Source: an uncultured archaeon | Lineage (GTDB): Archaea > Iainarchaeota > Iainarchaeia > Iainarchaeales > VGJJ01 | Length of the DNA stretch: 63,451 nt | Assembly (NCBI GenBank): GCA_964363635.1 | Contig: CAYIIU010000003.1 | Coordinates: 1-63,451 of the forward strand | Direction of reading: 5' to 3' | Shown here: positions 11,825 to 63,451 of the stretch, one piece after another | How positions within the stretch are numbered: the first letter of the stretch is position 1 | How the letters are laid out: each line of letters begins with the position of its first letter | Program-made: the position numbers and the translations under genes | Notes under the pieces: model-generated | Told to the model about the DNA's origin: nothing | Databases searched by the model: none | The model's input: only the letters and a program-made list of their open reading frames with translations

Positions 11825-11932
11825 ATGATGAGTCACGCGTGCTTGATGTGCAACGGGAAGATGTATGAAAACAAATGCAAGACCATTTGCCCCAACTGCG
11901 GGAGCAAGATGGACTGCTCGGACTTGTTCTGA
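11825..11932 (+). CDS. 35-aa zinc-ribbon miniprotein (tentative)
   Basis: MMSHACLMCNGKMYENKCKTICPNCGSKMDCSDLF (CxxC...CxxC). The longer track ORF starts with TTG inside the divergent gene. The A/T box ttttattaac lies about 24 nt upstream. Confidence 0.3.
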   Translation: MMSHACLMCNGKMYENKCKTICPNCGSKMDCSDLF

Positions 11933-11985
11933 ACGACGCGGACGGGTTGCTTGCATATAAAAAGACCAAAAACCGTCTCAAAGAC

Positions 11986-17151: not shown

Positions 17152-17246
17152 CCTCACTTTTTTCACGGCGGTGCGGGGAGAGTGGGGAAAAGATTAATGG
17201 TGTCAGCCAACAAAATGCTTAAATATTTCTATTGAATGCATGTGGA

Positions 17247-26487: not shown

Positions 26488-28728
26488 TTATGAAACGGCT
26501 GGAGGCTTTTTAGAGGAACGCGTTGCGCGCGGTTTCTTGGGCGTTTTCGCCGCGGAAGAAGGAGAGGGTTTGGGAGGGATAAAAGAAGGGCCGATTACAC
26601 GCGGGCCCGAAGAAGAAAGGGGGGTGGAAACTGCAGAAGATGGTGAAATTATTTTGGAGGGCATCGCGGTGGAAGCTGCGTTCTTTTCTGCAACGCTTTT
26701 TTTCCACGCATCCTTGCTCGGACAATCATAATTGACGCAAATTTCCATCTTAAATTTCTTTCCCGCCAAACGTATGAGCGGGGCCTTGTTGCACACCGGA
26801 CAGATTTTGTTCGTGGGATAGAGTGTTCCTTTTTGCGGCAAGGGAAACGTGGTGCGGCAATTGGGAAACTGGTCGCAGCCGAGGAAACGCTTCTGCGTCG
26901 CGGCAGCTTTGCGCATCACCAGTTGTCCTTTTTCGCAATTGGGGCACTTCCCCATCGTGTCTTGCTTGAAAAGCGCTTTTTTCAAATCCAATGAAATGGC
27001 ACTCTTGTTGAGGAGAAGCTGATCAAGCACGTGCAACAGCATGACGCGGGAGTCGTCCACGACTTTTGTTTTTTTGGTTTTTCCGCCCGCAACGTCATCC
27101 ATTTCGTGTTCGAGTTCCGCCGTCATCTTGGGTTCGGTGACAATTTTGGAATGCTTCTCCAGCGAATCGATGACAGCAAAAGCAATCTGATTGGGTTCAA
27201 TACTCTTGATACCGGAAATATATTGGCGCTCATATAATTTTTGAATGATGGTTGCTCTAGTAGCTTTGGTCCCGAGGGAATTCTCTTCCATGAGCTTCAA
27301 CAAAGCGGATTGAGAGTAGCGCGCAGGGGGCTGCGTTTCCTTCCGAGGCATTTCAATTTGATTCACTGGAACCACATCTCCTTCTTTCAACGCGGGCAAA
27401 ATGGTTTCTTTCAACTCCGAAAAAGGATACACGGCCTTCCACCCTGCGAAAAGAATAGTTTGCCCCGTTGCGGTGAAAGGTTCGGATTTTATTTCGAGTT
27501 CAACGGAAGTGTTTTCGGTTTCCGCATCGGGCATGAATGTGGCAAGAAAGCGGCGTGCCACAAGGTCAAAAAATTTCCATTCCTTATCGCCTATTTTTCC
27601 CTTTTCGGGAACTTTCGTTGGATGCACGGGGGGATGGTCGGTGGTGTTCTTAGGGCCCTTGGATGGGTTAAGAGGCGCGGAGAGAATTCCTTCGACGAAA
27701 GGAACGTACACTTTCTCGTTTTTCAACTCCTCCAAATGCTCACGCAAGTTCATCGTGGAGGGGTATGTTTGATTGTCCGTTCGCGGATAGGAGATGTACC
27801 CGGCCATGTACAACGATTCCGCCGTATTCATTGCCTGGCCCGCGGTAAAGCCCAATGCGGATGCGGCGCGGAGCATGGTGGTGGTATCAAAGGGGATGGG
27901 GCGTGCAATCATTCTTTTTTTCTTGGAAACTTTTTTGACTAGGGCTTTTTTTTCATCTTTAATTTTATCGAATATTTCGCGTGCGACTTTTTCCTCAAAC
28001 ATTTTTCCATTTTTGTGAAACGCGTCGAACAAAATACGGTCTTTCTCCGCGTGCGCGATTATTTCCCAGTAGGGCTGCACCACGAATGCAAGACGTTCCT
28101 TTTCGCGGTTGACAATGAGCGCGAGCACAGGAGTTTGTACGCGTCCTACCGAAATGAAATCCTTCCCCATGCGATTTCCCATAATAGAAACAAAACGCGT
28201 CAACGCCGCACCCCAAATCAAATCGATTTCCCTTCGCGCATCGGCGGAGTCGGATAAGTTGTAATCCACTTTCACAAGCTCATCAAAACTCTTCACCAAT
28301 TCCTTGGGAGTCATCGCGGAAAAATAGGCACGCTCCACGTTCACGTTTGGATTGACTTCCTGCACGATTCTCAACGCCTCCACGCCAATGCTTTCTCCTT
28401 CTCGGTCGGCGTCCGTGGCGATGATTATTTTGGTGGCGCTTTTTCCCACGTCTTTCATCAACGCGGCAATGGCGGCGTCATTGGGCGAATACAGAATGGG
28501 CGCCTTCGCCAGCTCTTTCAAATCGGTGCCCTTCCAATAACTATACTGCTTGGGAAAATCCACCTCTACAATGTGTCCGCGCAGGGGAATAACCGTGCTT
28601 TCCTCCACGCCACGCGTGAAGGAGTAATACTTGACGAAACCGCGCGCTTGCGAACGAGTGGTCTTTCCTCCCAAAACCTCGGCGATGCGCTGGCCCGCAA
28701 GATTCTTTTCGGCGATGATGAGTTGCAT
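26488..28728 (-). CDS. topA: type IA DNA topoisomerase with C-terminal zinc ribbons
   Basis: TOPRIM start MQLIIAEKNLAGQRIA, DADREGE, the active-site context YISYPRTDN, and CPNC/CPVC ribbons followed by a basic S/P/K tail. The track start at 28749 is TTG. Confidence 0.9.
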   Translation of the reverse strand: MQLIIAEKNLAGQRIAEVLGGKTTRSQARGFVKYYSFTRGVEESTVIPLRGHIVEVDFPKQYSYWKGTDLKELAKAPILYSPNDAAIAALMKDVGKSATKIIIATDADREGESIGVEALRIVQEVNPNVNVERAYFSAMTPKELVKSFDELVKVDYNLSDSADARREIDLIWGAALTRFVSIMGNRMGKDFISVGRVQTPVLALIVNREKERLAFVVQPYWEIIAHAEKDRILFDAFHKNGKMFEEKVAREIFDKIKDEKKALVKKVSKKKRMIARPIPFDTTTMLRAASALGFTAGQAMNTAESLYMAGYISYPRTDNQTYPSTMNLREHLEELKNEKVYVPFVEGILSAPLNPSKGPKNTTDHPPVHPTKVPEKGKIGDKEWKFFDLVARRFLATFMPDAETENTSVELEIKSEPFTATGQTILFAGWKAVYPFSELKETILPALKEGDVVPVNQIEMPRKETQPPARYSQSALLKLMEENSLGTKATRATIIQKLYERQYISGIKSIEPNQIAFAVIDSLEKHSKIVTEPKMTAELEHEMDDVAGGKTKKTKVVDDSRVMLLHVLDQLLLNKSAISLDLKKALFKQDTMGKCPNCEKGQLVMRKAAATQKRFLGCDQFPNCRTTFPLPQKGTLYPTNKICPVCNKAPLIRLAGKKFKMEICVNYDCPSKDAWKKSVAEKNAASTAMPSKIISPSSAVSTPLSSSGPRVIGPSFIPPKPSPSSAAKTPKKPRATRSSKKPPAVS

Positions 28729-28782
28729 AGGTAACCTAAGGTAATCCAAACATTATTAACGGGTAGCACGTTTAACTAGAGT

Positions 28783-34072: not shown

Positions 34073-35278
34073 TTATGGGACTACGACAAATGTGTCCGTC
34101 CGAATATTGTTCCCTTTATCAGCCGCCAATTCCTCACCATTAAAAACGGCGGGGTTACTGCCAATATAGTCAAAATGAGCAACATGGGAAATAGCAACGA
34201 GCTTGTAACTGGGACCGACTTGCAGGCCAAGGGCGGCAGGATTGATTAAATAATTATGCAAAATGGGCGGAGTCATATTTTCAATATTGACTGGGGGCAC
34301 ATTTTGTATAGCAAAAGCGGGCGAACTAGGGACCGCATACGATACCACCAGCGCATAGGCCTGCGGAATAACTGTGTCGTTAGGAGTACTCCCATATTGG
34401 ATTACATGCATTGTTGCAGCGGGGAATAATTTAGGGTTGGAAGGATTCAATAGTTCTTGGACCACCAAATCATATCCTGCAGGAGTATTGTCAATCCTCT
34501 CGCATAAATCATTTGAACCCGGCAAATCTTCGCAGATTGCAATGAGTTGTACAGAAGACATTCCAAGATAACTAGTATTGGCAAGAACGAGGTCATTTAG
34601 CTGAACACCTACTGTTGAAATCGAACTTTGTTGAATGGAAGAGGGTAGTGGTGTTAAAGCCGTGGAAAGGATATCCACATACGGCGAACCACCCGGCAAA
34701 CAACCAGTCGTGCTAATTAGTTGGCAGCTGTTGAGGCATGCCAAATTGCCGGTAGTGCCCGGCACCAACGAAGCGCACGTCGCTCCACCAAAATCAGATC
34801 CATCGCATATTTCAGGAGGAACCGCGGCGGGATCAATAACCCCATTTCCGCACCCGGGAGCAACCGGCGCCCCGCACGCCACGAGGCCGCCGCAATACGG
34901 ATTATCGGCATGGTCCCAATCGATCTGGACCTGAGAATACGAACGCAGCGATGCCACCGCATCGCACACTTGCATGCATCCGGGAGGGCGGCCATTCAAA
35001 CCGACCTGCAGTTCCTCATCGACATATCGGTCCCAATTTCCACTCGTGCGGACGTGAATTTTAATACCATTTCCAGCAAGGACCTCAGGAGTAACTTGAT
35101 TAATTTTTACGCGCAAGTTGCTTTTCTCGACGAATGGAAGAATGGCCAGCTTCGCCACGTACGCAGCGTTTGTTTTATTCTGGTTCTCAACATATGGAAT
35201 GACAATAGCGAGGACGACGACTAAAACAAACGAAACGACAAGCAATACTTCAATACTCGTTTGACCGCGTGTGTGCAT
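34073..35278 (-). CDS. large type IV pilin-like protein with Cys-rich repeat
   Basis: MHTRGQTSIEVLLVVSFVLVVVLAIV is a class III signal. The internal segment is CGNGVIDPAAVPPEICDGSDFGGATCASL...C...C. Confidence 0.75.
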   Translation of the reverse strand: MHTRGQTSIEVLLVVSFVLVVVLAIVIPYVENQNKTNAAYVAKLAILPFVEKSNLRVKINQVTPEVLAGNGIKIHVRTSGNWDRYVDEELQVGLNGRPPGCMQVCDAVASLRSYSQVQIDWDHADNPYCGGLVACGAPVAPGCGNGVIDPAAVPPEICDGSDFGGATCASLVPGTTGNLACLNSCQLISTTGCLPGGSPYVDILSTALTPLPSSIQQSSISTVGVQLNDLVLANTSYLGMSSVQLIAICEDLPGSNDLCERIDNTPAGYDLVVQELLNPSNPKLFPAATMHVIQYGSTPNDTVIPQAYALVVSYAVPSSPAFAIQNVPPVNIENMTPPILHNYLINPAALGLQVGPSYKLVAISHVAHFDYIGSNPAVFNGEELAADKGNNIRTDTFVVVP

Positions 35279-35280
35279 GA

Positions 35281-35856
35281 TTAGCTCGCATTAAAATCAA
35301 TAATATAACGGAAATTGCCGCTCGAAAAATAACGGCCTGCCATTCTAAAAGTCTGCGTAAAACCGGACTGGCCGACATCCAGAGTAAATGACGCATCGGG
35401 GGCCGCATCGCCTTGGCAGCGAAGTTCAACAAAAGAAGGAAAGACAAAATCTTTAGAGCAAAGCATGGCAATAGCGGGGTCGGAAGGATTTTCAACGCAA
35501 TCCGCAGGCGCCTGTCCGGTGGCATCAAACACGTCCGAATTCAATGGAAAAGTAATGCCGACATTTTTACCGTTGTTGTTGCAAAAGAATGTGCTTCCCT
35601 TGGGAAGATAAATATCCACAATTTGGCGGGAATCGCCCGGAATAATAGTCATGTTGCTGATGGAAGAAGCAATGACCTTCAACCCCGCGTCTGCAAAACC
35701 AACCTTACTCACATCATCCATAGCGAATTGCACGCGCTGGCCCAAGGGGACAACGACCGCAGCCATAATAACGAGCATGAAAATGAGGACGAGAATGAAT
35801 TCTAAACTGGCTTGGCCGCGCGAACCGGACGAAGCAAAACGCATCGTGGTTTTCAT
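35281..35856 (-). CDS. type IV pilin-like protein
   Basis: MKTTMRFASSGSRGQASLEFILVLIFMLVIMAAVVV. ATGA overlap with the peptidase stop. Confidence 0.75.
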   Translation of the reverse strand: MKTTMRFASSGSRGQASLEFILVLIFMLVIMAAVVVPLGQRVQFAMDDVSKVGFADAGLKVIASSISNMTIIPGDSRQIVDIYLPKGSTFFCNNNGKNVGITFPLNSDVFDATGQAPADCVENPSDPAIAMLCSKDFVFPSFVELRCQGDAAPDASFTLDVGQSGFTQTFRMAGRYFSSGNFRYIIDFNAS

Positions 35857-36986
35857 GAGACCCAACCCCATGCCAGAGGACCATCGCCCAAAGCATTCAA
35901 CAAAACATACGCGAGCAACACGGCGGGAGCGAAGGGAGCGGAGGCTTTGACTTTAATCGTGTCATCCAACAAGCCTTCTTTTACCGCGTGTTGCAACTTG
36001 GCAATCTGATCGGGATACACTCCCGCGGCCTGCCGCGGGTCCGCCCACGATTCTCCGGAAGGATGGATGATGCGCATAATGGTTCCTAAATCACGGTCCA
36101 TTCCTGCCTTAATAATGGTTTTGAACGAGACGCTACGTTCACGCACGACTTTCCCGTCTTTCAAGCCAATCCACTCGCCGGGAATGTCCCCGTCTTGCAA
36201 ATCGGAAATTTTCTTCCGTGCGGAGAGTACGTGGCGCTGAGCAAAACCATACCACGCGAGCAAAAAATTGACTAGGAGCAAAACACCCAAAACAGATGGA
36301 ATGAGACCCCATGAAATAGCCGAAGTAAGAATTCCAAACACAGAAAGAAAGGCCAACCCCTTCCGAATCACACCCGGAACAAAACCCGCTGCGAGCAATA
36401 CGAGAATAAGGAATAGGGGAGAAACAGAAAGCTGATTCAAGACGTGCGTGAACAAGACGATCAACAAACCCCATTCGAGCGCACGCAGAAAAGCGTCGCG
36501 TGTGATTTGCACAAACTCTTTTCGATGGGATTTATGGTTAAGAACGGTGAAAGCGAGAAAGGCGGAGTAGGGCATGAGCGCGATGACACTGCCCATGAAC
36601 AAATTGAGCATGAAAAAAGGCAGTGTGCTTGCCACGATGAGTTCACGTCCGCCGAAAACAAATGAAAAATGAAAAAAAGAGCCCAGAACAAACGGATTGA
36701 ATGGATTCAGCGCCGCGAGGCCGGTGAAAAGTTTGACGTCCCCTCCCGCCCATGCTCCCGCGCGCCAAAAGATGTACGCAAGGATGAACACGGCAATAGT
36801 CAATACCGCAGACCATGCTAAGGGGGATATGGATTGCGTGAAATAGGATTCATACGCCGCAAGACTCAAACCAAGAACAATCATCCCGTACGAAACCCAA
36901 TCGGGAATGATGCGCTCCTTGAAATCCGTGTACGTGGAAATGGATAATCCGACAATTGAAAGAAGAAACGAAACGAGCGGAAACAC
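35853..36986 (-). CDS. A24-family prepilin peptidase (PibD/EppA/FlaK-like) with an inserted soluble domain
   Basis: Two catalytic Asp contexts, YTDFKERIIPD and AWAGGDVKLF. A hydrophilic segment of about 90 aa sits before the last helix. GTG start. Confidence 0.8.
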   Translation of the reverse strand: MFPLVSFLLSIVGLSISTYTDFKERIIPDWVSYGMIVLGLSLAAYESYFTQSISPLAWSAVLTIAVFILAYIFWRAGAWAGGDVKLFTGLAALNPFNPFVLGSFFHFSFVFGGRELIVASTLPFFMLNLFMGSVIALMPYSAFLAFTVLNHKSHRKEFVQITRDAFLRALEWGLLIVLFTHVLNQLSVSPLFLILVLLAAGFVPGVIRKGLAFLSVFGILTSAISWGLIPSVLGVLLLVNFLLAWYGFAQRHVLSARKKISDLQDGDIPGEWIGLKDGKVVRERSVSFKTIIKAGMDRDLGTIMRIIHPSGESWADPRQAAGVYPDQIAKLQHAVKEGLLDDTIKVKASAPFAPAVLLAYVLLNALGDGPLAWGWVS

Positions 36987-36990
36987 GGGG

Positions 36991-37167
36991 CTAATCCCCC
37001 AAGAAACTCGTCACGGTGGCGATGCGGAACTCTTCAATATTCTTTTCCGCCACTTGAGCAATGCCAACGACTTGGAAAGCCAGCAGCGCGGCGATGGTGG
37101 CGAGGACTACTCCAAATGCGACCGTGAGGAGGTACTCCAATGCAATCTGCGCGCGCTGTTCCATCAT
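36991..37167 (-). CDS. small type IV pilin (58 aa), not in the ORF track
   Basis: My translation is MMEQRAQIALEYLLTVAFGVVLATIAALLAFQVVGIAQVAEKNIEEFRIATVTSFLGD, from ATG 37167 to TAG 36991-36993. Confidence 0.75.
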   Translation of the reverse strand: MMEQRAQIALEYLLTVAFGVVLATIAALLAFQVVGIAQVAEKNIEEFRIATVTSFLGD

Positions 37168-37236
37168 GTGGGGGTGTCTGCCTAAAATGTTAAAAAAAAA
37201 TATTGCTGCCGCGGCTGCGCGGCAACAACCTATGAA

Positions 37237-37407
37237 TTAGGGAAAGTTCCCTGTGATCTGGTGTTTGAACGTATTGATGTTGTTGTTGATAATCGTGTTC
37301 GTCTGTCCGGTGGAACCAATGATGATAAGCAACACAATCGTCGCGATGAGCACCGCACCTCCAATCAATAAGAGATATTCGAGAGCTCCTTGTCCTTTTT
37401 GATCCAT
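37237..37407 (-). CDS. small type IV pilin (56 aa), not in the ORF track
   Basis: My translation is MDQKGQGALEYLLLIGGAVLIATIVLLIIIGSTGQTNTIINNNINTFKHQITGNFP, from ATG 37407 to TAA 37237-37239. Confidence 0.8.
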   Translation of the reverse strand: MDQKGQGALEYLLLIGGAVLIATIVLLIIIGSTGQTNTIINNNINTFKHQITGNFP

Positions 37408-37425
37408 TTTTTTCCCTCCTCCTCA

Positions 37426-37590
37426 TTAGTTTGTCTGATTAATCACAGCATTCGACTGGTTCTGCAAATCCACTGACACGGTACTAAACACCCCTTTGAG
37501 GATTAATCCTGCAATGGTGGCGATGACAATGGCAATTCCCACGACCAGCAATGTTTCCATGGCCGTTTGACCGCGATTTTCATTCCACAT
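37426..37590 (-). CDS. small type IV pilin (54 aa), not in the ORF track
   Basis: My translation is MWNENRGQTAMETLLVVGIAIVIATIAGLILKGVFSTVSVDLQNQSNAVINQTN, from ATG 37590 to TAA 37426-37428. Confidence 0.75.
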   Translation of the reverse strand: MWNENRGQTAMETLLVVGIAIVIATIAGLILKGVFSTVSVDLQNQSNAVINQTN

Positions 37591-38522
37591 CAGAGACCCG
37601 ATCCTACGATGGTGCCAACCAGTATTTGCGACAGAAAGAATACTGTGTAAGCGAGCATAAGCAACAAAGGGATGTATAAAAGGCTTTTGGAAAGCTTGCC
37701 GTCGCGCATCGCCCCAATCATCACGGAAGCGGCCACGGCGATGATGAAAATGTACCCTTTAATGGCAAAAATAATCATGTCACGCGCCCCTTTCACTTTG
37801 GACAAATCCGCACCCGTGACGGCACCCGTGTTGGCGGATGTGCGAATCAAAAAGTCAATAACCACGGAAACTAATCCGAAAATGAACGGCGCCACCATCA
37901 CTCCCGCAGCGACCATAAAAATAACCTGCAAAATGGTTTTGGATTTCCGCTCCGCGGAGATCCGGTTCATTTCACGCACATCCTGCGAAATATCATCCAG
38001 AATTTCAGCGAGCTGCGCACCCGCACGGACGGTGTCTACAATAATCGTAATAACACGCCCAACGAGACGCGAATCCACATTGCGCGTGAGCGACAAAAGA
38101 GAGTTTTCAAAATTCTCGCCCTCTTCCAACTTTCGCAATACTTTTTTCATCTCATCCGAAAGGGGGCCGTACTGCGCCGAGGCCACTTCACGCAGCGCGT
38201 ACTCGTACGTGGAGCCCGTTTTGAGCGTGTCGGAGATTTGCTTCAACGCATCGGGAAGAGCCTCTTCAATGGCATCGATGCGCGAACGGCCCTTAATGTA
38301 TGGGTAACCCACCATGGCATCAAGCACAATGGCAAACGCCAAGATGCCCAACAGGGGTTCGTTGATTTTAAGTATGGCCGAACCGGCGAACACGAGCAAA
38401 CCCAATGCGAGCGCTGCGATGAAGGAGCCCACGAGCCAGAGCAGAGGTGGAACATCCAAGTTGGCCTGCTGCATGTAATAGGCGTACTTCTCCAATGGTG
38501 TTTTTTTTTCAAAGATCCCCAT
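37590..38522 (-). CDS. T2SSF-domain platform protein (TadC/EpdK-like)
   Basis: ALPDALKQISDTLKTGSTYEYALREVA...LSDEMKKVLRKLEEGENFENSL is a T2SSF repeat, flanked by TM helices. Confidence 0.8.
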   Translation of the reverse strand: MGIFEKKTPLEKYAYYMQQANLDVPPLLWLVGSFIAALALGLLVFAGSAILKINEPLLGILAFAIVLDAMVGYPYIKGRSRIDAIEEALPDALKQISDTLKTGSTYEYALREVASAQYGPLSDEMKKVLRKLEEGENFENSLLSLTRNVDSRLVGRVITIIVDTVRAGAQLAEILDDISQDVREMNRISAERKSKTILQVIFMVAAGVMVAPFIFGLVSVVIDFLIRTSANTGAVTGADLSKVKGARDMIIFAIKGYIFIIAVAASVMIGAMRDGKLSKSLLYIPLLLMLAYTVFFLSQILVGTIVGSGL

Positions 38523-38543: not shown

Positions 38544-39734
38544 CTACACGCGCGGCTGGCTGATATACAAATAGTACGCCAGACCTCCCAGCAATGAGGG
38601 CATAATCAAAAAATAAAAAATGAGAACAATCGGAGGCGTGAGCGGGAGGCTTACTCCCAACGGAAGACCACCGTTGACAATCGCCGCCATGACACCCACA
38701 AAAACGGGCATGACGATTCCCATGAAAATGAAAATGACTCCGAAAAAATTTAATTTTTCCGAATAGTCGCGCACTTTCATACGCAGGTCGAATGAAACAT
38801 CGCTCGCAATGGTTCCCATAATCTCCGAAAGGTTTCCACCCGTGCGCAAGGCGCGCATAATATGCCGCAACGCATTGGCAAGAGGCTTCGACTGCGTGCG
38901 CGCGGCAAAATGACGCAGCGCATCTTTTGTATCCGTCCCTTCTTCAATCTCCGAAATCGTACGCGTAAATTCCTGCGAGAGCACCCCATAATCGGCCTTG
39001 GCAATGGTTTGAAGGGTTTTATACAACCCGATTCCGGCGCGCAGCTCGGTAGCCATATGCCGGAGTGCGAATGGAAGTTCAGTAGAGCAAATATCCCCGC
39101 GCTTTTGGGCATTGGATTGAGGAATAATAAAACCCACAAAAATGGCTACGAGCATGAGAAAAAACGCCCCAAAGAAGGGAATGATGTATGAAAGAGCAAC
39201 GACGGTCGGGCTTAGCACCTGCTGGCGCTGCTCCGCCAGATAGCGCAAAAGGAGGAAGAACAATTCTCCAAACGAAAAAGAGACGATAAGGACAATGACG
39301 GAAACGACTGAAATGAGCGCGACCCATTGCTTAGGAGAATAGGGCATGTTGGCCGAGTACAAATAATAATTCAGCGACTTCATTTGGGGAAGCGTCTCCA
39401 TAAATTTTCCAATGCGCTCAAACAGACCATGCAGAGAAAAATACAAGTGTCCAAGGATGCGGATGTAGGGGGATTTTCCATCACGCAGGGATTCGACACT
39501 TTGCACCTCTACATTTTTTTGACCCGAACCCGAAATAATCCCCTTCAGCTCGCCCAACTTTCCTTCCACTTCATTGAACTCCAACCCTTCCGTGCGGTAT
39601 TTTGATTTCATCCTATTTACAATGGTATCAATCTCACGGTCGGAAAGCTCTTCCTGAATCTCGTCTGCTGCAGAAAACTTTTTCTTTTTCTCCTCGATGC
39701 GGGAACGGATGCCGGAAAACTCTTCATTAGGCAT
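38544..39734 (-). CDS. T2SSF-domain platform protein (TadB/EpdJ-like)
   Basis: LPFALRHMATELRAGIGLYKTLQTIA...SQEFTRTISEIEEGTDTKDAL plus TM helices. Confidence 0.8.
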   Translation of the reverse strand: MPNEEFSGIRSRIEEKKKKFSAADEIQEELSDREIDTIVNRMKSKYRTEGLEFNEVEGKLGELKGIISGSGQKNVEVQSVESLRDGKSPYIRILGHLYFSLHGLFERIGKFMETLPQMKSLNYYLYSANMPYSPKQWVALISVVSVIVLIVSFSFGELFFLLLRYLAEQRQQVLSPTVVALSYIIPFFGAFFLMLVAIFVGFIIPQSNAQKRGDICSTELPFALRHMATELRAGIGLYKTLQTIAKADYGVLSQEFTRTISEIEEGTDTKDALRHFAARTQSKPLANALRHIMRALRTGGNLSEIMGTIASDVSFDLRMKVRDYSEKLNFFGVIFIFMGIVMPVFVGVMAAIVNGGLPLGVSLPLTPPIVLIFYFLIMPSLLGGLAYYLYISQPRV

Positions 39735-42136
39735 TAGACATTCTCCAAAAAATCCCGAGACAATTGAGAGACGGTTTTCATATCGCGCACGTTCCTATCC
39801 ACCAGACCTTGAAGGAATCGTTCGCGTCTTTTTAACTCCCCTTGCATTTCGACCTGAGTTTTACCCGTTAATTGAGCCAACCGCTCAAAATATTTCACAG
39901 GCATGTTGGTGCGGGACATTTCGTCCTTGACCGCATCCCACTCAAACACGGTTTCGGTGCGGGCCTTTCCCTCCAACACGCCGTGAACCTCGGCAATCTC
40001 CATGATTCTACGATATGTCCCGCGCTGCGAAGAATGAAATAAGTTCTCAACGATGACAAAATTCAAACCCGAAAGCATGACTTCAGGAACACTCATGGGA
40101 GGACTGGTTACGCGTACAAGGGTTTCCTGCGCCGAATTGGCATGAATCGTTCCCATCGAATTACCTACAATTATCCCCTCGGCCACAAAATTATGGGGCA
40201 TTTTCCCTGTTTCGTTGGATTCGTTTACCGTTAGATCATACACGAAACCAGAATAAGATTTCACATCAATTGAAACAATTTCATCCATGACAACATCCGA
40301 ATCCAAAACGGAGTCGCCCAAAAAATTCTGTGTCCAATCACTTATATCATTTTCGATACGCAGTGGACAAGCAACGTGCTGACCAATAACTAATGTTTCT
40401 GCTAATCTCCGAACGATTTTCTCTTCAAAACAATAAAACGGATGATTTCCCGTCGCAGTAATTTCGTTACCAGAAGCCAATTTTATATGGTATACCATTC
40501 CTTCAAACGGCTTACGACGAGCCTGCACAATGGAAGACCGGAATAGTTTCCCATTGGAATCAATCGAAGTAATGTGCTCATTCTCAATCGAACAAACATC
40601 CCATTCGCCTTCTTTCCATGAAGAATGGTCCAGTTTTGAATCGACAAACGAACCGATTTCCAAGATACCGGATGTAAGGGGTATTTTGGCATCTCCAATC
40701 AAACAACCATCGTGACCCGTGTTCATCGCGGTGAACAGGGAGAACGCTTCATCATGGCGGACTTCACCCACAATGATTCGGTCCGGGCGCATACGCAAAC
40801 TATTTTTGGTGAGAATGTCCAAGGTTATTTCTCCCTTTCCTTCCAAACCGGGAGGGCGGCCTTCCAAACGAATCCAGTGGCGCAATGGCAACGAGAGTTC
40901 GGACGTGTCTTCAATGGAAATAATACGCTCATTCGAGGGAATGAAGGAACACAAGACGTTCAATAAGGTTGTTTTTCCCGAAGAGGTTCCTCCGGAGATG
41001 AGAATGTTGGCCGGCTGCGTTCCAAGACCATCCACGCACAACCACAAAAAAGCGGCCACATCCACGGAGAGCGTTTTGTAATTGATTAAATCAACAATCG
41101 AATACGGGTCCGAGCGGAACTTTCGAATGGTGAGAGTTGAACCGGACACCGAGGCGGGGGGAATCGTCGCATTGACACGCGAACCATCCGGCAAACGAGC
41201 ATCCAAGAGAGGGGAAGAAATATCCACGCGACGCCCAACCTCACGGGCAATTCGATTAACCAAATCCTGCACTTCATTGTCGTTTGTGAATTCCACATTC
41301 GTAATCATCATGTCGTATTTGCGGTGAAACACATACACGGGAACATTTGGACCTATTACCATGATTTCTTCGAGCTTATCATCCTTGATCAGGGAGTCAA
41401 TGAGACCATACCCGACCATCTCCGATACCACGGCCTGCGCATAAAAATCAAACTTGGTGGAAGGAACTTTCAATTCGGGAGACGCACGCAAAATCTCCAA
41501 CACCTGCTGCGCGTACACATTTCTTTTTTGCTCCGGGTCGCGAATACGATACGGGGTAATACTGATGAGCCGCGTCGCAGCCTCTTTGAGCGTGTTGATG
41601 ATGGCCCGCTCACTCACGGTGGGACGTGCCACTGGAATGGTGTAATACATGAGGGGCTCGCCCTGCACGCGGTAAATTTTGGCGTCGCCATACTCATCGA
41701 TAAGCGTTTTCGGCTTGTCCGACATCAACTGTTCAAACGTGTCGACTTTTCCTTTGGACATTTCCTGCAATTGCTGCACGACTTTAGAAGGCGAAGCAAA
41801 CGCGGAGGACGTGGGACGAGGAGCAATATCCTTATCGGGAGTGGGAACAAATTCAGGAATGGAAATAGAAGCCGTTTCGACACGCGACTCCATACGTGCA
41901 ACGGGGGAAACGGAAGGAATCCCTCCGGCAGAAGTGTAGGATGAAGGAGGAACAAACCCAGTGTTTCCCGAACTGGAACGAAGGGCGTTGATTTTACGCA
42001 CCAACTCGTCAATGTTTTCTCCCGCAGGAGCGGCAGGAATTTCGGTTTTGACGGAAGAAACCTTAGGCTTCAATGAAGCGGGGGAACTACCCGATGGAAC
42101 GAGCGGTTTTACTTGGAGAGAGGTGTTTTCACTCAT
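39734..42136 (-). CDS. CpaF/TadA/VirB11-family type IV filament assembly ATPase, intein-containing precursor
   Basis: Walker A ISGGTSSGKTTLLN, Asp box/Walker B RPDRIIVGEVRHDEA, and a His-box AMNTGHDG...SMGTIHAN split by 182 aa. The N-terminal extension of about 140 aa is S/P-rich. Confidence 0.9.
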   Translation of the reverse strand: MSENTSLQVKPLVPSGSSPASLKPKVSSVKTEIPAAPAGENIDELVRKINALRSSSGNTGFVPPSSYTSAGGIPSVSPVARMESRVETASISIPEFVPTPDKDIAPRPTSSAFASPSKVVQQLQEMSKGKVDTFEQLMSDKPKTLIDEYGDAKIYRVQGEPLMYYTIPVARPTVSERAIINTLKEAATRLISITPYRIRDPEQKRNVYAQQVLEILRASPELKVPSTKFDFYAQAVVSEMVGYGLIDSLIKDDKLEEIMVIGPNVPVYVFHRKYDMMITNVEFTNDNEVQDLVNRIAREVGRRVDISSPLLDARLPDGSRVNATIPPASVSGSTLTIRKFRSDPYSIVDLINYKTLSVDVAAFLWLCVDGLGTQPANILISGGTSSGKTTLLNVLCSFIPSNERIISIEDTSELSLPLRHWIRLEGRPPGLEGKGEITLDILTKNSLRMRPDRIIVGEVRHDEAFSLFTAMNTGHDGCLIGDAKIPLTSGILEIGSFVDSKLDHSSWKEGEWDVCSIENEHITSIDSNGKLFRSSIVQARRKPFEGMVYHIKLASGNEITATGNHPFYCFEEKIVRRLAETLVIGQHVACPLRIENDISDWTQNFLGDSVLDSDVVMDEIVSIDVKSYSGFVYDLTVNESNETGKMPHNFVAEGIIVGNSMGTIHANSAQETLVRVTSPPMSVPEVMLSGLNFVIVENLFHSSQRGTYRRIMEIAEVHGVLEGKARTETVFEWDAVKDEMSRTNMPVKYFERLAQLTGKTQVEMQGELKRRERFLQGLVDRNVRDMKTVSQLSRDFLENV
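40160..40705 (-). mobile_element. mini-intein (182 codons) in the pilus ATPase
   Basis: It starts at Cys478 (TGT, 40703-40705; CLIGDAKIPL). It has ITATGNHPFY (TxxH-like block B) and GFVYDLTV...HNFVAEGIIVGN ending in Asn659 (AAT, 40160-40162), followed by Ser+1. Excision restores GHDGSMGTIHAN. Confidence 0.8.
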
Positions 42137-43019: not shown

Positions 43020-43050
43020 TTTTTGATTAAACTTTTTCCTAAAAAGTTTA
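43020..43050. terminator. palindromic oligo-T terminator copy between convergent 42508-42930 and dnaG
   Basis: TTTTTGATTAAACTTTTTCCTAAAAAGTTTA. The terminal TTA is the complement of the dnaG stop (43048-43050). Confidence 0.55.
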
Positions 43051-44535
43051 TGCTACGATAATTTTGACTTTACTCTTTTCCATCTTCCCTTTCTTCACAC
43101 CCACAATTAATTGAACGTTGCTTTTTTCTGCGGCGTCAACCAATCGCTTCGTGACAATCCCATCACACACGATTGTGTGAACATTTTTCGCGGAGGCGAG
43201 CTTTTCGACCATATCCTTCACAGGAACAGAGGCGAGCTCTTTCTTATTCGCATCCAAAAATTTGGCGAGCTTCTTCCCTTTGACTTGGTCAATCAAACCC
43301 GCATATTCTTTCGAATCGACTGAAGACTCCACTGACTCGGCAACCGTGTCAGCGCCGCCCTGCACTTCGAATGTAGGCAAGGGCTTTCCGCCCGTTGCTC
43401 CAAAACGCGGACGAATATTTGAACGTGCCTCCGGAGCGGGAGCATCCATGTCTCGCTCGATTCCGCGAGGAGAATCAAATCCGCGAGGCATGTCTCGGCC
43501 ATGCATCGGACGCCCCATGCGGGGAGAAAATCCTTCGTCGCGTGAACGGGAATGCGGGTCCATTCTTCCGCGGGAATCTTCGCTCATTTCATCATCCATT
43601 CCGCGGCCGCGCATCGGGCGCATCTCATCGCGTCCGCGCGGTTGTGAACGGGAGTCCATTCGGTCGCTGTGGCTCATCCCGCGCTGGGTTTCTCTTCCGG
43701 AGACGCCAATGGAATCCAAGAACGTTTGAATGGGAACACGTCTGCGCAAAGCTTGAATGATTTCCTTCTGCTGCAGCTCTTCCACTTCTTTTCCATCCGG
43801 TGCCACGCACACAAACGGAACGATAGCAATCTGATGCAGCTTTCGTGCGTTCAATTCTCCGCCGCGGTCGCCATCAACAAATAACACGATTGTTTTTCGC
43901 CTTGACAACGAGACGATGTCCTGCGAAATGCGCGAACCGCCCATTCCAATGACATTTTTGATTCCGTGCTTGAGCAAGTTCACGACATCCGCGCGGCCCT
44001 CCACGACAATCACTTCATCATTCGTTTCAATATCCGGACCCGCGGACAAACGGTCGCGGCCGAACTCTACTAAGGCGCCGGCGCGCGCGTCGGAGCGGAT
44101 TTCTTCCGTCAACGTGTCGATTTCAGGTGTCTGTTCGAGTTTGAGTCGCGAAAGAAGCTCTTTGGCCCGCTTCGCGATGTCCGCACGCTTGTTTTGTCGA
44201 ACGTCTTCAATAGTGGTCACGCGAAACTGCGATTCGCAAGGACCGACTTTGTCAACGGTTTCCATCGCAGCGGCCAACACACTCGTCTCGGCCATATCCA
44301 TGGACGTGGGAATGAAAATTTCTCCATTGGTGTTTCCCCCTTCCGGGTGAACATTCACTTCAATCCGCCCTACACGTCCTTTCTTTTGCAATTCGCGCAA
44401 ATCCATCTCCTCTCCTAAGAGGCCTTCACTCTGTCCGAAGACGGCGCCGACAATGTCAGGTTTGTCAACGACGCCTTTAATCGTAAACTGAATCTTAATC
44501 ATGTATTTGACTGCGTCAACATACGTTTTAGCCAT
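43048..44535 (-). CDS. dnaG: archaeal DnaG primase (TOPRIM) with an internal R/G/D/M-rich insertion
   Basis: KYMIKIQFTIKGVVDKPDIVGAVFGQSEGLLG is the archaeal DnaG N-terminus. TOPRIM motifs VIVVEGRADV and LFVDGDRGGE are present. I start at the ATG at 44535 because the track start at 44568 is TTG. Confidence 0.88.
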   Translation of the reverse strand: MAKTYVDAVKYMIKIQFTIKGVVDKPDIVGAVFGQSEGLLGEEMDLRELQKKGRVGRIEVNVHPEGGNTNGEIFIPTSMDMAETSVLAAAMETVDKVGPCESQFRVTTIEDVRQNKRADIAKRAKELLSRLKLEQTPEIDTLTEEIRSDARAGALVEFGRDRLSAGPDIETNDEVIVVEGRADVVNLLKHGIKNVIGMGGSRISQDIVSLSRRKTIVLFVDGDRGGELNARKLHQIAIVPFVCVAPDGKEVEELQQKEIIQALRRRVPIQTFLDSIGVSGRETQRGMSHSDRMDSRSQPRGRDEMRPMRGRGMDDEMSEDSRGRMDPHSRSRDEGFSPRMGRPMHGRDMPRGFDSPRGIERDMDAPAPEARSNIRPRFGATGGKPLPTFEVQGGADTVAESVESSVDSKEYAGLIDQVKGKKLAKFLDANKKELASVPVKDMVEKLASAKNVHTIVCDGIVTKRLVDAAEKSNVQLIVGVKKGKMEKSKVKIIVA

Positions 44536-44564
44536 ATTTTGTATCAACTCTTTTTGGTAACGAG

Positions 44565-44846
44565 TCAACGAGAGTTCAGAATTTGTTCAATGCGTTCACG
44601 CGGAAGCGGAATATCCAAAACTTTTTTGGACGAAGAATGACCTTTACTTATTTTTACTGGAACGCCAAACAGGCGCGAGCATTCTTTTTCGAGTTCCGCA
44701 TTGGCTTGATTTTGTTGCGGACGTGAAACCACGTGGACGTGCCACATGTTTGTCCAGATGTCTTTTTTCACAAAACCAAAAATTGGCTTGCGGGGATGCA
44801 CCGAAATGCTCAATGAGGATTTCGGCACCCGACTCAACACCTTCAA
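44565..44846 (-). CDS. DUF167/YggU-family protein
   Basis: HVHVVSRPQQNQANAELEKECSRLFGVPVKISKGHSSSKKVLDI resembles the DUF167 core (..GKAN..L...L......v.i..G..s..K.i.i). TTG start. Confidence 0.55.
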   Translation of the reverse strand: MKVLSRVPKSSLSISVHPRKPIFGFVKKDIWTNMWHVHVVSRPQQNQANAELEKECSRLFGVPVKISKGHSSSKKVLDIPLPRERIEQILNSR

Positions 44847-52516: not shown

Positions 52517-54073
52517 ATGCCCGAAAAAGAAGAAGAAATAGGAACGGTGGTATCCAATCTTGAGGGGCCGTCCCCCAACCAAGTGGATTTTGTCGTATTA
52601 AACGGAAAAGTCCACCGCGGGCAATTCGTGGAAATACCCTACTCGGAAGGAACGCTCATAGGAATGGTGACGAATGTTCTCAAAACCAACAAATACTTCG
52701 AACGCGCCGACGCGGTAAAAGAGTTCGAGGCGCAGGGAACCAAATTATTCGAACAATTTCCGGTGCACGACTGGGAGTACATCATGGCGGTGACAACGCC
52801 GCTGGGTGTGTTTACGAATGAAAACAAAATCAAACGCACCACATTCCCCCCAAGCCCGGGAAGCAAGGTGTTTAACGCGCAACCCGAAAGTTTGGTAAGA
52901 TTTCTTGGCTTTGATGAAGAAAAAGGACTAGAATTAGGAAACATGGAATTTCATCCGGTTAAAGTTAAACTAAATTTATCTCGATTATTACAGAAACATT
53001 TTGCGATCCTCGCTCAAAGTGGAAGCGGTAAAAGTCACTTTATTTCGTGCCTGCTGGAAGAATTGCTTACGCGAAAAAAAGAAAATGGAAGAGTGGCCAT
53101 CGTGGCGTTTGACGTGCATGGGGAATATACTAATTTCGCGGAACCCGTGATGGACGCCAAATACACCGACTATTCCAAACACACACGGCTGATTCGCGCA
53201 CGGGATTTGCGCATTGGCGTTCCCAAAGTAAGCGCGGGAATGTTTTACTCCCTTTTGCCTAACGCATCACCCGCACAGAAGCGCGAATTGAGCAAAGTGC
53301 TGCAACGGCTGCAGCAAAAAATGAAAGACGGACAAGGACCCTACGATTTGAATGACATCAAAGGAGAATTGCTCGCGGAAATGGGAAGCAAAGATGCGAA
53401 GGAAAGCGTTATTGCCGCGCTCATCGGGTGGTTACATGAACTGGACGATTTGCAATTGTTTGGAAAAGCGGACAACCCATCTCTATTGGATTTGGTCCAG
53501 CCCGGCGTTCTTACGGTCGTGGATTTGTCGGACATTATCCACCAGCACAAGAAACAAGTGATTGTGGCGTATTTGTCGAATCGATTATTTTACGAACGAA
53601 GAGCGAAACGAATTCCTCCCGTGACCATTGTGTTGGAAGAAGCGCACAACTTCATCCCGCAGCAGATTGCAAAGGAAGGAAGCATCACGAAAGGGATTAT
53701 GCGCACGATTGCACGCGAAGGAAGGAAGTTTGGGGTGAGCTTGTGCCTTATTTCCCAGCGGCCGATACAACTTGACACGACGACACTATCGCAATGCAAC
53801 ACCCAATTACTTTTGCGCATCACCAACCCGTACGATATCAAACACATCGGCGAATCGGCCGAAGGATTGTCCGCGGAAAGCTTGGGAATGCTCACCTCGC
53901 TGCGCGTCGGAGAGGGCTTATTAATCGGCGAAGCGGTGAACGCCCCCACGTTCTTCAAAATACGTCAACGGAATTCGCAACCTTCTCAACACGAGGGAAC
54001 GCTGGAGAAAGCGAGCATTGATTTCGAAGAGAATGAACGGAAGAACAAAAAGGAAACGGAAGATTTGTTGTAG
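52517..54073 (+). CDS. herA: HerA helicase/translocase (FtsK-HerA superfamily)
   Basis: HAS-barrel-like N-terminus, Walker A ILAQSGSGKSHFISCLLEEL and Walker B TIVLEEAHNF. Confidence 0.85.
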   Translation: MPEKEEEIGTVVSNLEGPSPNQVDFVVLNGKVHRGQFVEIPYSEGTLIGMVTNVLKTNKYFERADAVKEFEAQGTKLFEQFPVHDWEYIMAVTTPLGVFTNENKIKRTTFPPSPGSKVFNAQPESLVRFLGFDEEKGLELGNMEFHPVKVKLNLSRLLQKHFAILAQSGSGKSHFISCLLEELLTRKKENGRVAIVAFDVHGEYTNFAEPVMDAKYTDYSKHTRLIRARDLRIGVPKVSAGMFYSLLPNASPAQKRELSKVLQRLQQKMKDGQGPYDLNDIKGELLAEMGSKDAKESVIAALIGWLHELDDLQLFGKADNPSLLDLVQPGVLTVVDLSDIIHQHKKQVIVAYLSNRLFYERRAKRIPPVTIVLEEAHNFIPQQIAKEGSITKGIMRTIAREGRKFGVSLCLISQRPIQLDTTTLSQCNTQLLLRITNPYDIKHIGESAEGLSAESLGMLTSLRVGEGLLIGEAVNAPTFFKIRQRNSQPSQHEGTLEKASIDFEENERKNKKETEDLL

Positions 54074-55842: not shown

Positions 55843-55921
55843 CCAGTCCGGTCATCGGGACGATTCGTAAGCGTCAGGTGGTGATGAATTAGCCCCGCCT
55901 CGCGGACTTGCACCGAACTTC

Positions 55922-55938
55922 GGAACCTACGGCGGTTT
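55922..55938 (+). repeat. GGAACCTACGGCGGTTT 17-mer, copy 2 (upstream of ORF 55986)
   Basis: Exact 17-mer shared with 15098-15114. Confidence 0.7.
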
Positions 55939-55985
55939 ACCCCTCCCGAAGGGATATAGCGCGGGGATTTTTTCTATTTCTTCGT

Positions 55986-57293
55986 ATGTCTCCCCATACG
56001 TTCAGTCTAGTGGCAGTGTCGGCCCGCGATGAGCGAAAAACCATTGATGTTACGTTCACGAACAACTCACAAAAAAAGACTAAACCATTTCCATTTTTCC
56101 CATCCTTTTACCTCCCCCGCACTTCCACTACTCCGTTTGAAAAAATACTTGAAACCATTTCCAAACCTCCATTGCAAACCATTCCGCACCCGCACAGCAC
56201 GCAAGTCATGTGCGGCACGTGGGGGGAATTGAAAAACGTGGCGCAACAAGTTCATACAAGCACGAATTATTTTCCCCAATTAATCGAACCCGAAAGGCAA
56301 TTCTTACTCACGCAAAATTGGAGATACTTTCAAACATTTGATGAAAAGCTTTCACCGCTCAATGAAGCGTTCATGGATACACTCATTCCGGGATTTGTCG
56401 AACCATTGTACACTACCCTAAACGGCGCACGCGCGCACAACCCAAAAATAGAACAGGAACTCCGTGAGCGCATGGTCGCCAGTCATGAATTATTCCTTCC
56501 CTACACGGATGCACCCATTTCATCCAACGAACAGATAGAAATGATTCTCAACAACTACATGTTCGCCAACCACCGCGCAACACCATTGCAAAAAGGGAAT
56601 TTTACCACGACTTCAATGTGGTCACACGCCCAACGGACCCGCGCAAATGAAATTTTTTCTCAAACACCTATACAAGGGGAAGGAAAATGCGAGTGTTGTA
56701 AACCTACTAACCTTTTTTACGCGTCATTACAAGACGGAAGTATCGTGGACACGCGCGTGACACAAGATGGAGTGTACATTCACACGAACAACATCACTCA
56801 AGGCAACGATTACCACGAAGCACATGCGGGAAAAGAAAAACGCTTGGCGCGACAGCGAGAGTTTGGACTTTCAACCATTCCAATTGGCCCGTTATTTCGC
56901 AACGAAAAAATATCATTATCACTTAACGAGGCGCGGAATGAAATCAAACAAGGAACCCTTGCGGCGGAAATTAATCTGACGAATGCATATTGGAAATGCG
57001 CTAAACAACCATTCGTGTTTGATAAAATTCGCCAAAGTCTTGCCGCGCGAGCACAGCTGCATGACGTGCAACAGAACGCGCTCACGCAACCCTATTTGAC
57101 GCAGTTCCAGCTCGCCTACACGTCTCAAGTCCAGAAGGACCCACTCGTGCAATTGCATACCCTCGCGGCGCGCCGGACGAAGGATTGGGAGTTAAATCTG
57201 GCCAACCACCTGATTTTCCACCCCACCGAATGGAGAGAGGCCACCCACGCCCAACTCTTAGAAAAGGCTATCCTAGGAACTAAGCTACTTTAA
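55986..57293 (+). CDS. hypothetical protein (faint family-B-polymerase N-terminal-like strings)
   Basis: The ATG at 55986 begins a 435-aa ORF. KPFPFFPSFYLP and YFPQLIEPERQFLL resemble PolB N-domain strings by eye only. No polymerase motifs were seen. Confidence 0.5.
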   Translation: MSPHTFSLVAVSARDERKTIDVTFTNNSQKKTKPFPFFPSFYLPRTSTTPFEKILETISKPPLQTIPHPHSTQVMCGTWGELKNVAQQVHTSTNYFPQLIEPERQFLLTQNWRYFQTFDEKLSPLNEAFMDTLIPGFVEPLYTTLNGARAHNPKIEQELRERMVASHELFLPYTDAPISSNEQIEMILNNYMFANHRATPLQKGNFTTTSMWSHAQRTRANEIFSQTPIQGEGKCECCKPTNLFYASLQDGSIVDTRVTQDGVYIHTNNITQGNDYHEAHAGKEKRLARQREFGLSTIPIGPLFRNEKISLSLNEARNEIKQGTLAAEINLTNAYWKCAKQPFVFDKIRQSLAARAQLHDVQQNALTQPYLTQFQLAYTSQVQKDPLVQLHTLAARRTKDWELNLANHLIFHPTEWREATHAQLLEKAILGTKLL

Positions 57294-63396: not shown

Positions 63397-63451
63397 GGCC
63401 CCGTAGCTTAGTCTGGATAGAGTGTCGGGCTTCGGACCCGAAGGTCGGGGG
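63397..63451 (+). tRNA. tRNA-Arg (anticodon UCG), 3' part cut by the window edge
   Basis: Folded by hand: acceptor GGCCCCG, U8, D-arm GCUU/AGUCUGGAUA/GAGU, anticodon stem UCGGG/CCCGA, loop CU-UCG-GA, variable AGGUC, and the start of the T-stem GGGGG. A/T-rich boxes lie at 63351-63381 upstream. Confidence 0.8.

Follow-up and report, generated by a model that had tools for sequence, protein, structure and literature searches.

A divided His box in a pilus ATPase gene

This study concerns a 63,451-nucleotide (nt) stretch of DNA from an uncultured archaeon of the Iainarchaeota (contig CAYIIU010000003.1 of assembly GCA_964363635.1), which was analyzed over its whole length and is referred to as the window. 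Within it, a gene encoding a type IV pilus assembly ATPase carries an in-frame insert in its catalytic His box. An initial annotation, made from the sequence alone, had proposed that the insert is a mini-intein. We refer to inteins at this site by their first residue (Cys1, Ala1, or Met1) and to the flanking host segments as exteins. The gene, read from an open reading frame (ORF) of 800 amino acids (aa), and its parts are as follows, with the basis of each assignment in brackets:

39734..42136, minus strand: precursor gene of the CpaF/TadA-like type IV pilus ATPase, 800 aa including the intein (ORF listing; Pfam T2SSE)
40706..42136, minus strand: N-extein, residues 1-477, ending ...AMNTGHDG, first half of the His box (translation, alignment)
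40160..40705, minus strand: mini-intein, 182 aa, precursor residues 478-659, CLIGDAK...GIIVGN (Pfam, TIGR, and PDB matches; model)
40703..40705, minus strand: Cys1 codon, the block A nucleophile, C478 (translation; invariant in the Cys1 lineage)
40442..40453, minus strand: block B T-G-N-H, intein T85...H88 (conservation in inteins at the site)
40307..40342, minus strand: linker SDWTQNFLGDSV, intein residues 122-133, vestige of LAGLIDADG motif 1 (alignment to 460-aa relatives)
40160..40249, minus strand: blocks F and G, GFVYDLTVNESNETGKMPHNFVAEGIIVGN, intein residues 153-182, ending Gly181-Asn182 (conservation in inteins at the site)
39737..40159, minus strand: C-extein, residues 660-800, opening with Ser+1 as the first letter of SMGTIHAN, second half of the His box (translation, alignment)

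The host protein is identified from its matches as a CpaF/TadA-like type IV pilus assembly ATPase. Pfam T2SSE (PF00437) matched the 800-aa protein with E = 1.3e-39, in two pieces on either side of the insert, and the NCBIfam FlaI and TadA family models also matched it, both below their cut-offs. When the spliced sequence was compared with solved ATPases, it matched Caulobacter CpaF (9e24, 8rkd) with E = 4e-76, as well as Afu GspE2 (2oap) and FlaI (4ii7). The alignment to CpaF runs through all motifs and places the splice point between G376 and S377 of that protein, five residues ahead of the His-box H382 (counted along the alignment). The histidine of TIHAN in the C-extein corresponds to H382, which adjoins the γ-phosphate. 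The reading frame is clean, and its stop codon shares 1 nt with the start of the following gene.

The insert is preceded by ...FTAMNTGHDG and followed by SMGTIHANSAQE..., and its excision yields AMNTGHDGSMGTIHAN. The same string is contiguous and identical in an intein-free ortholog (P0005) and nearly identical in CpaF, where AMNTGHDGSMGTLHANS is likewise contiguous. Thus, both the extent of the insert and the restoration of an ATPase motif upon its deletion, as initially proposed, proved exact.

The insert has the sequence blocks and the predicted fold of an intein

The Pfam Intein_splicing model matched inside the insert with E = 4.8e-17, TIGR01445 (intein_Nterm) matched precursor residues 478-568 (E = 7e-11), and TIGR01443 (intein_Cterm) matched residues 631-660 (E = 5e-5). 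In a phmmer search of PDB sequences, the significant matches were inteins only, including PI-PkoII (1.5e-11), the Mja KlbA intein (2jmz; 3.6e-8), and the Ssp DnaB mini-intein (4e-6). The block set is present: C1; T85 and H88; D157, H171, and F173; and N182, followed by Ser+1. Among 14 members of the Cys1 lineage, C1, T85, N87, H88, P89, Y156, D157, H171, N172, F173, G181, and N182 are invariant, while across 37 inteins at the His-box site H88, Y156, D157, and N182 are invariant and T85 nearly so. The motifs named in the initial annotation (Cys1, the TGNH of ITATGNHPFY, YDLTV, and the terminal Asn) are therefore real and conserved.

The annotation had also drawn attention to the penultimate (G:6) residue, which is Gly181 and not the His that is common, although not obligatory, in inteins. 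We collected orthologs by full-length protein search and took the 120 best ATPase relatives as a census. Gly occupies G:6 in every Cys1 intein of this census except P0069, which has Ala, and is thus the rule in the lineage.

An AlphaFold2 model of the intein, built with an alignment of its 37 site-mates, reached a mean predicted local distance difference test score (pLDDT) of 87.2 and a predicted template modeling score (pTM) of 0.82, with values below 50 only at intein residues 122-133 (the linker) and 164-167 (a loop in block F). The model has a predicted HINT fold. A Foldseek search against the PDB listed almost exclusively inteins, with E down to 4e-13 and template modeling (TM) scores of about 0.8 for the best matches: 0.79-0.81 for the Mvu TFIIB mini-intein, 0.80 for PhoCDC21-1, 0.78 for Pho RadA, and 0.77 for Mja KlbA 2jmz, with a root-mean-square deviation (rmsd) of 2.2 Å. 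At the bottom of the list stood a few HINT domains of hedgehog autoprocessing and bacterial-intein-like (BIL) proteins. The Hint-domain search that had been proposed thus agrees with the motif reading, and the insert is identified as an intein.

The HINT fold itself would also be expected of a BIL or hedgehog-type domain that cleaves without ligating its flanks. Such a domain, however, fits poorly with the full intein block set, including the C-terminal Asn and the Ser+1 nucleophile, with the interruption of a conserved catalytic motif that orthologs carry unbroken, and with best matches that are true inteins while BIL and hedgehog domains lie far down the Foldseek list. We give this explanation almost no weight.

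A hidden Markov model (HMM) built from 109 inteins found a single intein in the whole window, at 40160..40705. An explanation at the RNA level, such as an intron, is unneeded: the region gave no Rfam match, and the insert is homologous to inteins in frame and at the level of protein.

The intein occupies the KlbA site but belongs to class 1 by sequence

When 15 flanking residues were added to the query, 2jmz became the top PDB match (2.5e-14). Its precursor reads MNTGHDG|ALAYDEP...AVS(A)|(S)SGTLH, and the window protein reads AMNTGHDG|CLIGDAK...IVGN|SMGTIH. The aligned junctions place the insertion point at a position identical to that of the Mja KlbA intein, which settles a comparison suggested by the initial annotation; in intein nomenclature, the window intein and the KlbA inteins are assigned as alleles, that is, inteins at the same site.

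The KlbA orthologs make up class 2, in which all inteins start with Ala1 and Cys+1 attacks the N-terminal junction directly (PMC4031507, PMC2807308). They lack a penultimate His and have Ser at G:6 (PMC4031507), as the annotation had stated for the Ala start and the missing His. The window intein likewise lacks the penultimate His, but it has Cys1 and not Ala1, Gly and not Ser at G:6, and Ser+1 and not Cys+1. Class 3 is defined by a WCT triplet (Trp B:12, Cys F:4, and Thr G:5) together with a non-nucleophilic residue 1 (PMC2807308); in the window intein the corresponding positions are Phe90, Asp157, and Val180, and residue 1 is Cys. The class 1 residues, in contrast, are present as C478, N659, and S660. 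Because the intein combines Cys1, a C-terminal Asn, and Ser+1 and lacks the WCT triplet, its sequence places it in class 1, and we assign it to the class 1 type and not to class 2.

Considered together, we regard it as highly likely that the gene carries a genuine class-1-type mini-intein in the His box of a CpaF/TadA-like ATPase heading a DPANN type IV (Tad-like) pilus operon. In annotation, the ORF should accordingly be divided into a pilus ATPase (618 aa) and an intein (182 aa) and not be called an 800-aa "FlaI".

Empty, full-size, and mini forms exist at the same site

Among orthologs from metagenome-assembled genomes (MAGs) labeled Candidatus Diapherotrites or Iainarchaeum, the site occurs in three states: empty, filled by a full-size intein, and filled by a mini-intein. 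The empty state is represented by P0005 (locus L001), which is exactly 618 aa long (800 - 182) and reads GHDG-SMGTIHAN, with a contiguous GHDGSMGTIHAN. The L001 contig is fully syntenic with the window, and the exteins are 93% identical at the aa level (N-extein 92.7%) and 84-86% at the nt level. The full-size state is found in P0002, P0003 (locus L002, also syntenic with the window), and P0004, which carry a 460-aa intein with LAGLIDADG_3 and helix-turn-helix (HTH) domains at the same point and with C...VGN|S ends. Two mini forms lack the endonuclease, namely the window copy (182 aa) and P0102 (locus L010; 186 aa). Because all three forms occur, the segment is not a conserved domain that stays in the protein, one of the outcomes that, according to the initial annotation, would refute its proposal. 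In the whole census, we counted 25 inteins of the Cys1...GN|S type (including P0077, whose N-extein NTGQDG escaped the junction motif search) and 17 of the Ala1/Met1...SN|C type, while the remaining sites are empty.

The larger Cys1 inteins of 459-464 aa (among them P0002, P0003, P0004, P0030, and P0121; Iainarchaeota/Diapherotrites) share the site and the Cys1...VGN|S ends with the window intein and are 57-63% identical to it over the splicing domain, which makes the window intein a member of their lineage. They differ in retaining an endonuclease/HTH insert of ~278 aa, of which the window copy has only a vestige of LAGLIDADG motif 1. Relative to L002, ~278 residues are missing between RIENDISD and SDVVMDEIV, and the remnant WTQNFLGDSVL lines up with YWSGMLHGDGN, which is LAGLIDADG motif 1 in the 460-aa relatives. 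This remnant coincides with the low-confidence stretch 122-133 of the model. In the 800-aa protein, we found no Pfam match to LAGLIDADG, HNH, or other endonuclease domains. The alignment thus identifies the window mini-intein as a deletion derivative of the 460-aa, LAGLIDADG-bearing relatives, and the initial view that it is too short for a homing endonuclease is borne out. The mini-intein of P0102, from another archaeal MAG, has the same site and the same Cys1...VGN|S ends; however, it is only 37% identical to the window intein and has other deletion boundaries, which indicates that the endonuclease was lost independently. Empty, full-size, and mini forms in syntenic, closely related genomes offer a natural and compact view of the homing cycle.

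The Cys1 lineage was found in about eleven MAGs labeled Iainarchaeum, "archaeon", or, once, Micrarchaeota (one genome per GTDB species). A search of 185,579 species-representative genomes returned no closer copy of the window mini-intein, the best match being 60% identical. We found no description in the literature of Cys1 inteins at the KlbA site or of inteins in DPANN pilus ATPases, an absence that is no proof of novelty.

Inteins occupy no fewer than three sites in the ATPase superfamily. Besides its His-box Cys1 intein, P0121 carries one of the Ser1...HN|T type in the Walker B region (ITMED|S...), and P0139 is interrupted by inteins both in the P-loop (GAGK|C...) and in Walker B. P0154 and P0226 contain two more inserts at the His-box site that are related to the Cys1 lineage. 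In P0154, which reads NTGHEG|RLCADARV...LLTSN|SLTSVH, position 1 lacks an obvious nucleophile, the C-extein is divergent, and the boundary is putative.

The intein evolves faster than its host and differs from it in composition

Between the window and L001, the exteins show 0.032 nonsynonymous substitutions per site (dN) and 0.79 synonymous ones (dS), a dN/dS of ~0.04. Between the window and L002, the extein dN is 0.063, while the proportions of nonsynonymous and synonymous differences in the intein (pN and pS) are 0.30 and 0.79, the latter saturated. The intein thus evolves ~6-fold faster than the exteins, and its substitution pattern is assigned to purifying selection nonetheless.

The GC content of the intein is 40%, as compared to 49-51% in the host exteins, and its GC at third codon positions (GC3) is 36% versus 55%. 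No other locus of the 12 compared shows a gap this large. Across 11 related loci, two of low GC excepted, the intein GC3 lies nearer mid-range than the extein GC3, the pattern anticipated for an element passing from genome to genome. The AT-rich composition of the window intein points either to a source genome of lower GC or to relaxed selection on codons.

Splicing is predicted to follow the class 1 route and to control the ATPase

The conserved residues indicate that the window intein is probably active in splicing and point to the class 1 route. Translation would yield the 800-aa precursor, in which Cys478 would undergo an N-S acyl shift aided by Thr85 and His88 of block B and Asp157 of block F. 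Ser660 (+1) would then receive the N-extein by transesterification, cyclization of Asn659 would free the 182-aa intein, with Gly181 in place of the usual penultimate His, and an O-N shift would produce the 618-aa ATPase with its His box, GHDGSMGTIHAN, intact. The ancestor is likely to have been an intein of ~460 aa with a LAGLIDADG homing endonuclease and an HTH domain, a larger form still present at the site in related genomes. With the endonuclease lost, the window copy would no longer home and would persist by vertical inheritance.

Four points speak against this account of an active intein. The penultimate residue is Gly and not His; the nearest intein relative is only ~60% identical, so that recent inactivating changes outside the known catalytic positions may have occurred; the saturated dS yields a bound on the dN/dS of the intein in place of a measured value; and, in the databases searched, the window protein stands alone as a singleton. 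Alternatively, the insert might be a former intein that no longer splices, within an ATPase that is functionally a pseudogene or that works with the extra domain looped out. Such a relic would accord with the missing endonuclease, the absent penultimate His, and the unusually AT-rich composition. However, every known catalytic position is intact and invariant, the penultimate Gly is the norm of the lineage and no lesion, the exteins are strongly constrained in a clean reading frame, and the insert divides the very motif that contacts the γ-phosphate. We therefore hold a dead relic to be very unlikely and prefer an intein that still splices.

Because the insert splits the catalytic His box, the unspliced precursor should be an inactive ATPase, and from this position it is a sound inference that pilus assembly is conditional on splicing. 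Splicing might in addition occur only under certain redox or temperature conditions, which would add to an active intein, without replacing it, a post-translational switch on pilus assembly, a process that DPANN cells probably require for host attachment. Several points would suit such a switch: the inactive precursor expected from the His-box position, three internal cysteines (C38, C92, and C113) in addition to Cys1, with C38 recurring in many relatives, and the retention of the element despite the loss of its endonuclease. Inteins are also discussed as environmental sensors in PMC6195587 and PMC11409957. In contrast, the 93%-identical ortholog manages without an intein and the site is polymorphic across the clade, which fits a selfish element in its homing cycle better than a recruited regulator. 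We thus consider a conditional switch unlikely, and our account remains that of a splicing mini-intein.

As a natural mini-intein of 182 aa with Ser+1, the element is a possible tool for biotechnology. The current understanding of inteins is unchanged by these findings.

Two intein lineages share the site in Iainarchaeota

In the Iainarchaeota orthologs, the intein features covary: Cys1 occurs with GN|S ends, while Ala1 or Met1 occurs with SN|C ends. The Ala1 mini-inteins of DPANN archaea are clear KlbA orthologs (1.8e-29 to 2jmz). The window intein, in contrast, matched 2jmz with E = 3.6e-8, and PI-PkoII and MCM inteins scored equally well or better. An exhaustive phmmer search of 1.84 billion representatives likewise ranked MCM inteins (5.9e-17) above the Ala1 inteins of the His-box site (~1e-8). 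By these comparisons, the Cys1 lineage is placed no closer in sequence to KlbA inteins than to MCM inteins.

We considered whether the Cys1/Gly/Ser+1 lineage might nevertheless be a direct derivative or ancestor of the class 2 KlbA lineage, with the mechanism switching in place and no separate colonization of the site. This would account for the identical insertion point, for the occurrence of both lineages in orthologous Iainarchaeota ATPases, and for their common LAGLIDADG and HTH architecture. Mixed states exist as well: two members of the Cys1 lineage, P0105 and P0127, are followed by Cys+1 (C...GN|C), and P0103 combines Ala1 with Gly at G:6 (A...GN|C). When a full Cys1 intein served as the query, Ala1 inteins of the site ranked just above other-host inteins, and A1C and A1S mutants of KlbA reportedly still splice (PMC7664689).

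Sequence distances and trees point the other way. The mean distance between Cys1 and Ala1 splicing domains was 1.62, as compared to 1.57 between Cys1 and other-host inteins. In neighbor-joining (NJ) bootstraps, the Cys1 clade was recovered in 33/60 replicates (55%) and the Ala1 clade in 50/60 (83%), while their union appeared in only 4/60; these distances are near saturation and hence weak evidence either way. The ranking of MCM inteins above Ala1 inteins in the exhaustive search also argues against a switch in place, and the Ala1 endonuclease is nearer to the endonucleases of other hosts than to that of the Cys1 lineage. Common descent of the two lineages at the His-box site is, if anything, unsupported by these data, and we regard the switch in place as possible but doubtful. 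The initial annotation had suggested a "related but mechanistically canonical allele". The allelic site and the canonical chemistry (Cys1, Asn, and Ser+1, class 1 by sequence) hold up, whereas the window intein did not group with the KlbA inteins in the NJ trees.

A still broader proposal would be that the two KlbA-site lineages of one DPANN phylum, linked by the mixed states, record a natural mechanism switch at a single site and that the window copy has been kept since its splicing gates pilus assembly and hence the attachment of an episymbiont to its host. We judge this combination to be distinctly improbable. What the data do indicate is that the KlbA site in Iainarchaeota also houses a lineage of its own kind, in which the chemistry is standard and the penultimate Gly is conserved. 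With both kinds of intein in one extein context, their comparison could address why class 2 inteins are able to dispense with the first acyl shift.

Some inteins at the site do not follow the two junction types described above. P0112-P0114 (183-aa inteins), P0118 (438 aa), and P0028 (471 aa) start with Met1, have SN|C ends, and lie within the Ala1 (KlbA) clade. Because class 2 inteins are all Ala1 according to PMC4031507, these Met1 members would widen the definition of the class. A further mixed junction at the His-box site, Ala1 with HN|C, is found in P0190.

The ATPase gene heads a pilus operon

Downstream of the ATPase gene and on the same strand lie two T2SSF genes, three pilin-like genes, and a prepilin peptidase gene, and the order is kept in L001 and L002:

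38544..39734, minus strand: T2SSF (TadB/FlaJ-like) membrane platform protein, 396 aa (Pfam T2SSF 5.4e-20; same position in L001 and L002)
37590..38522, minus strand: second T2SSF (TadC-like) protein, 310 aa (Pfam T2SSF 3.8e-17)
36991..37590, minus strand: three tandem pilin-like genes, 54, 56, and 58 aa, with class III signal peptides (ORFs)
35853..36986, minus strand: archaeal prepilin peptidase, 377 aa (Pfam Peptidase_A24 4.9e-14, Arc_PepC 4.8e-7)

The pilin-like genes sit between the second T2SSF gene and the prepilin peptidase gene, and their signal peptides read RGQ|TAMETLL, KGQ|GALEYLL, and RAQ|IALEYLL. In L001 and L002, Pfam Class_IIIsignal matched the counterpart of the middle pilin gene only. 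This gene content identifies the operon as one for a type IV (Tad-like) pilus, in a DPANN archaeon of the Iainarchaeota/Diapherotrites. A gene for a Toprim-domain protein of 506 aa (43048..44568, minus strand) lies directly upstream of the operon, and this synteny is kept in L001 and L002.

Elsewhere in the window, we noted archaeal informational genes at 8233..9639, 16006..17121, 23124..25577, 26488..28749, 52517..54073, 59159..61522, and 61647..62813. They encode an RFC-like AAA+ protein, Cdc6/Orc1, CDC48, topoisomerase I, HerA, a Rad50-like SMC protein, and a second AAA+ ATPase, the last of which (61647..62813) has generic AAA Pfam matches only. Several such genes are common intein hosts in other archaea. 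All seven are intein-free here, and the 109-intein HMM found no intein in CDC48, the RFC-like AAA+ protein, Cdc6/Orc1, the Rad50-like SMC protein, HerA, or topoisomerase I. ORFs of 401-676 aa without a Pfam match lie at 11875..13464, 17232..19262, and 55908..57293 (E <= 1e-5) and at 34073..35278 (E <= 0.01). A tRNA gene (63397..63451, plus strand; Rfam RF00005, 31.6 bits) is cut by the window end.

Comparison with known inteins

Among inteins of known structure, the archaeal mini-inteins of Mvu and Mja TFIIB, Pho RadA, and Pab and Pho CDC21-1 resemble the window intein in size and in belonging to class 1. The Mvu TFIIB, Pho RadA, and CDC21-1 inteins are its best structural matches (TM 0.77-0.81), while Mja TFIIB (5o9j) reaches only ~0.61. 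They differ from the window intein in host protein and site, and their identity to it is 15-25%.

A non-His residue at G:6 is shared with other inteins that splice without a penultimate His (Chen, Benner and Perler, JBC 2000, cited in PMC4031507). Examples with Gly at this position are those of Mja RNA polymerase A' and Ceu ClpP. Chen, Benner and Perler reportedly observed in 2000 that some inteins lacking the penultimate His need one to splice well in heterologous hosts.

Another close counterpart is the intein of Methanocaldococcus jannaschii (Mja) KlbA (MJ0781; PDB 2jmz/2jnq), the prototype of class 2. Its host belongs to the same superfamily of VirB11/CpaF/FlaI-type secretion ATPases as the window host, and both inteins interrupt it at the same point, MNTGHDG|intein|[C/S]xGT[IL]H. 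The Mja KlbA intein is likewise a natural mini-intein (168 aa) without a penultimate His, and the fold is the same (TM 0.77, rmsd 2.2, 25% identity), although the block F loop of the window intein is 7 residues longer. KlbA inteins combine Ala1, Ser at G:6, and Cys+1 and do without the first acyl shift, while at these three positions the window intein carries Cys, Gly, and Ser, and in NJ trees it falls outside the KlbA clade.

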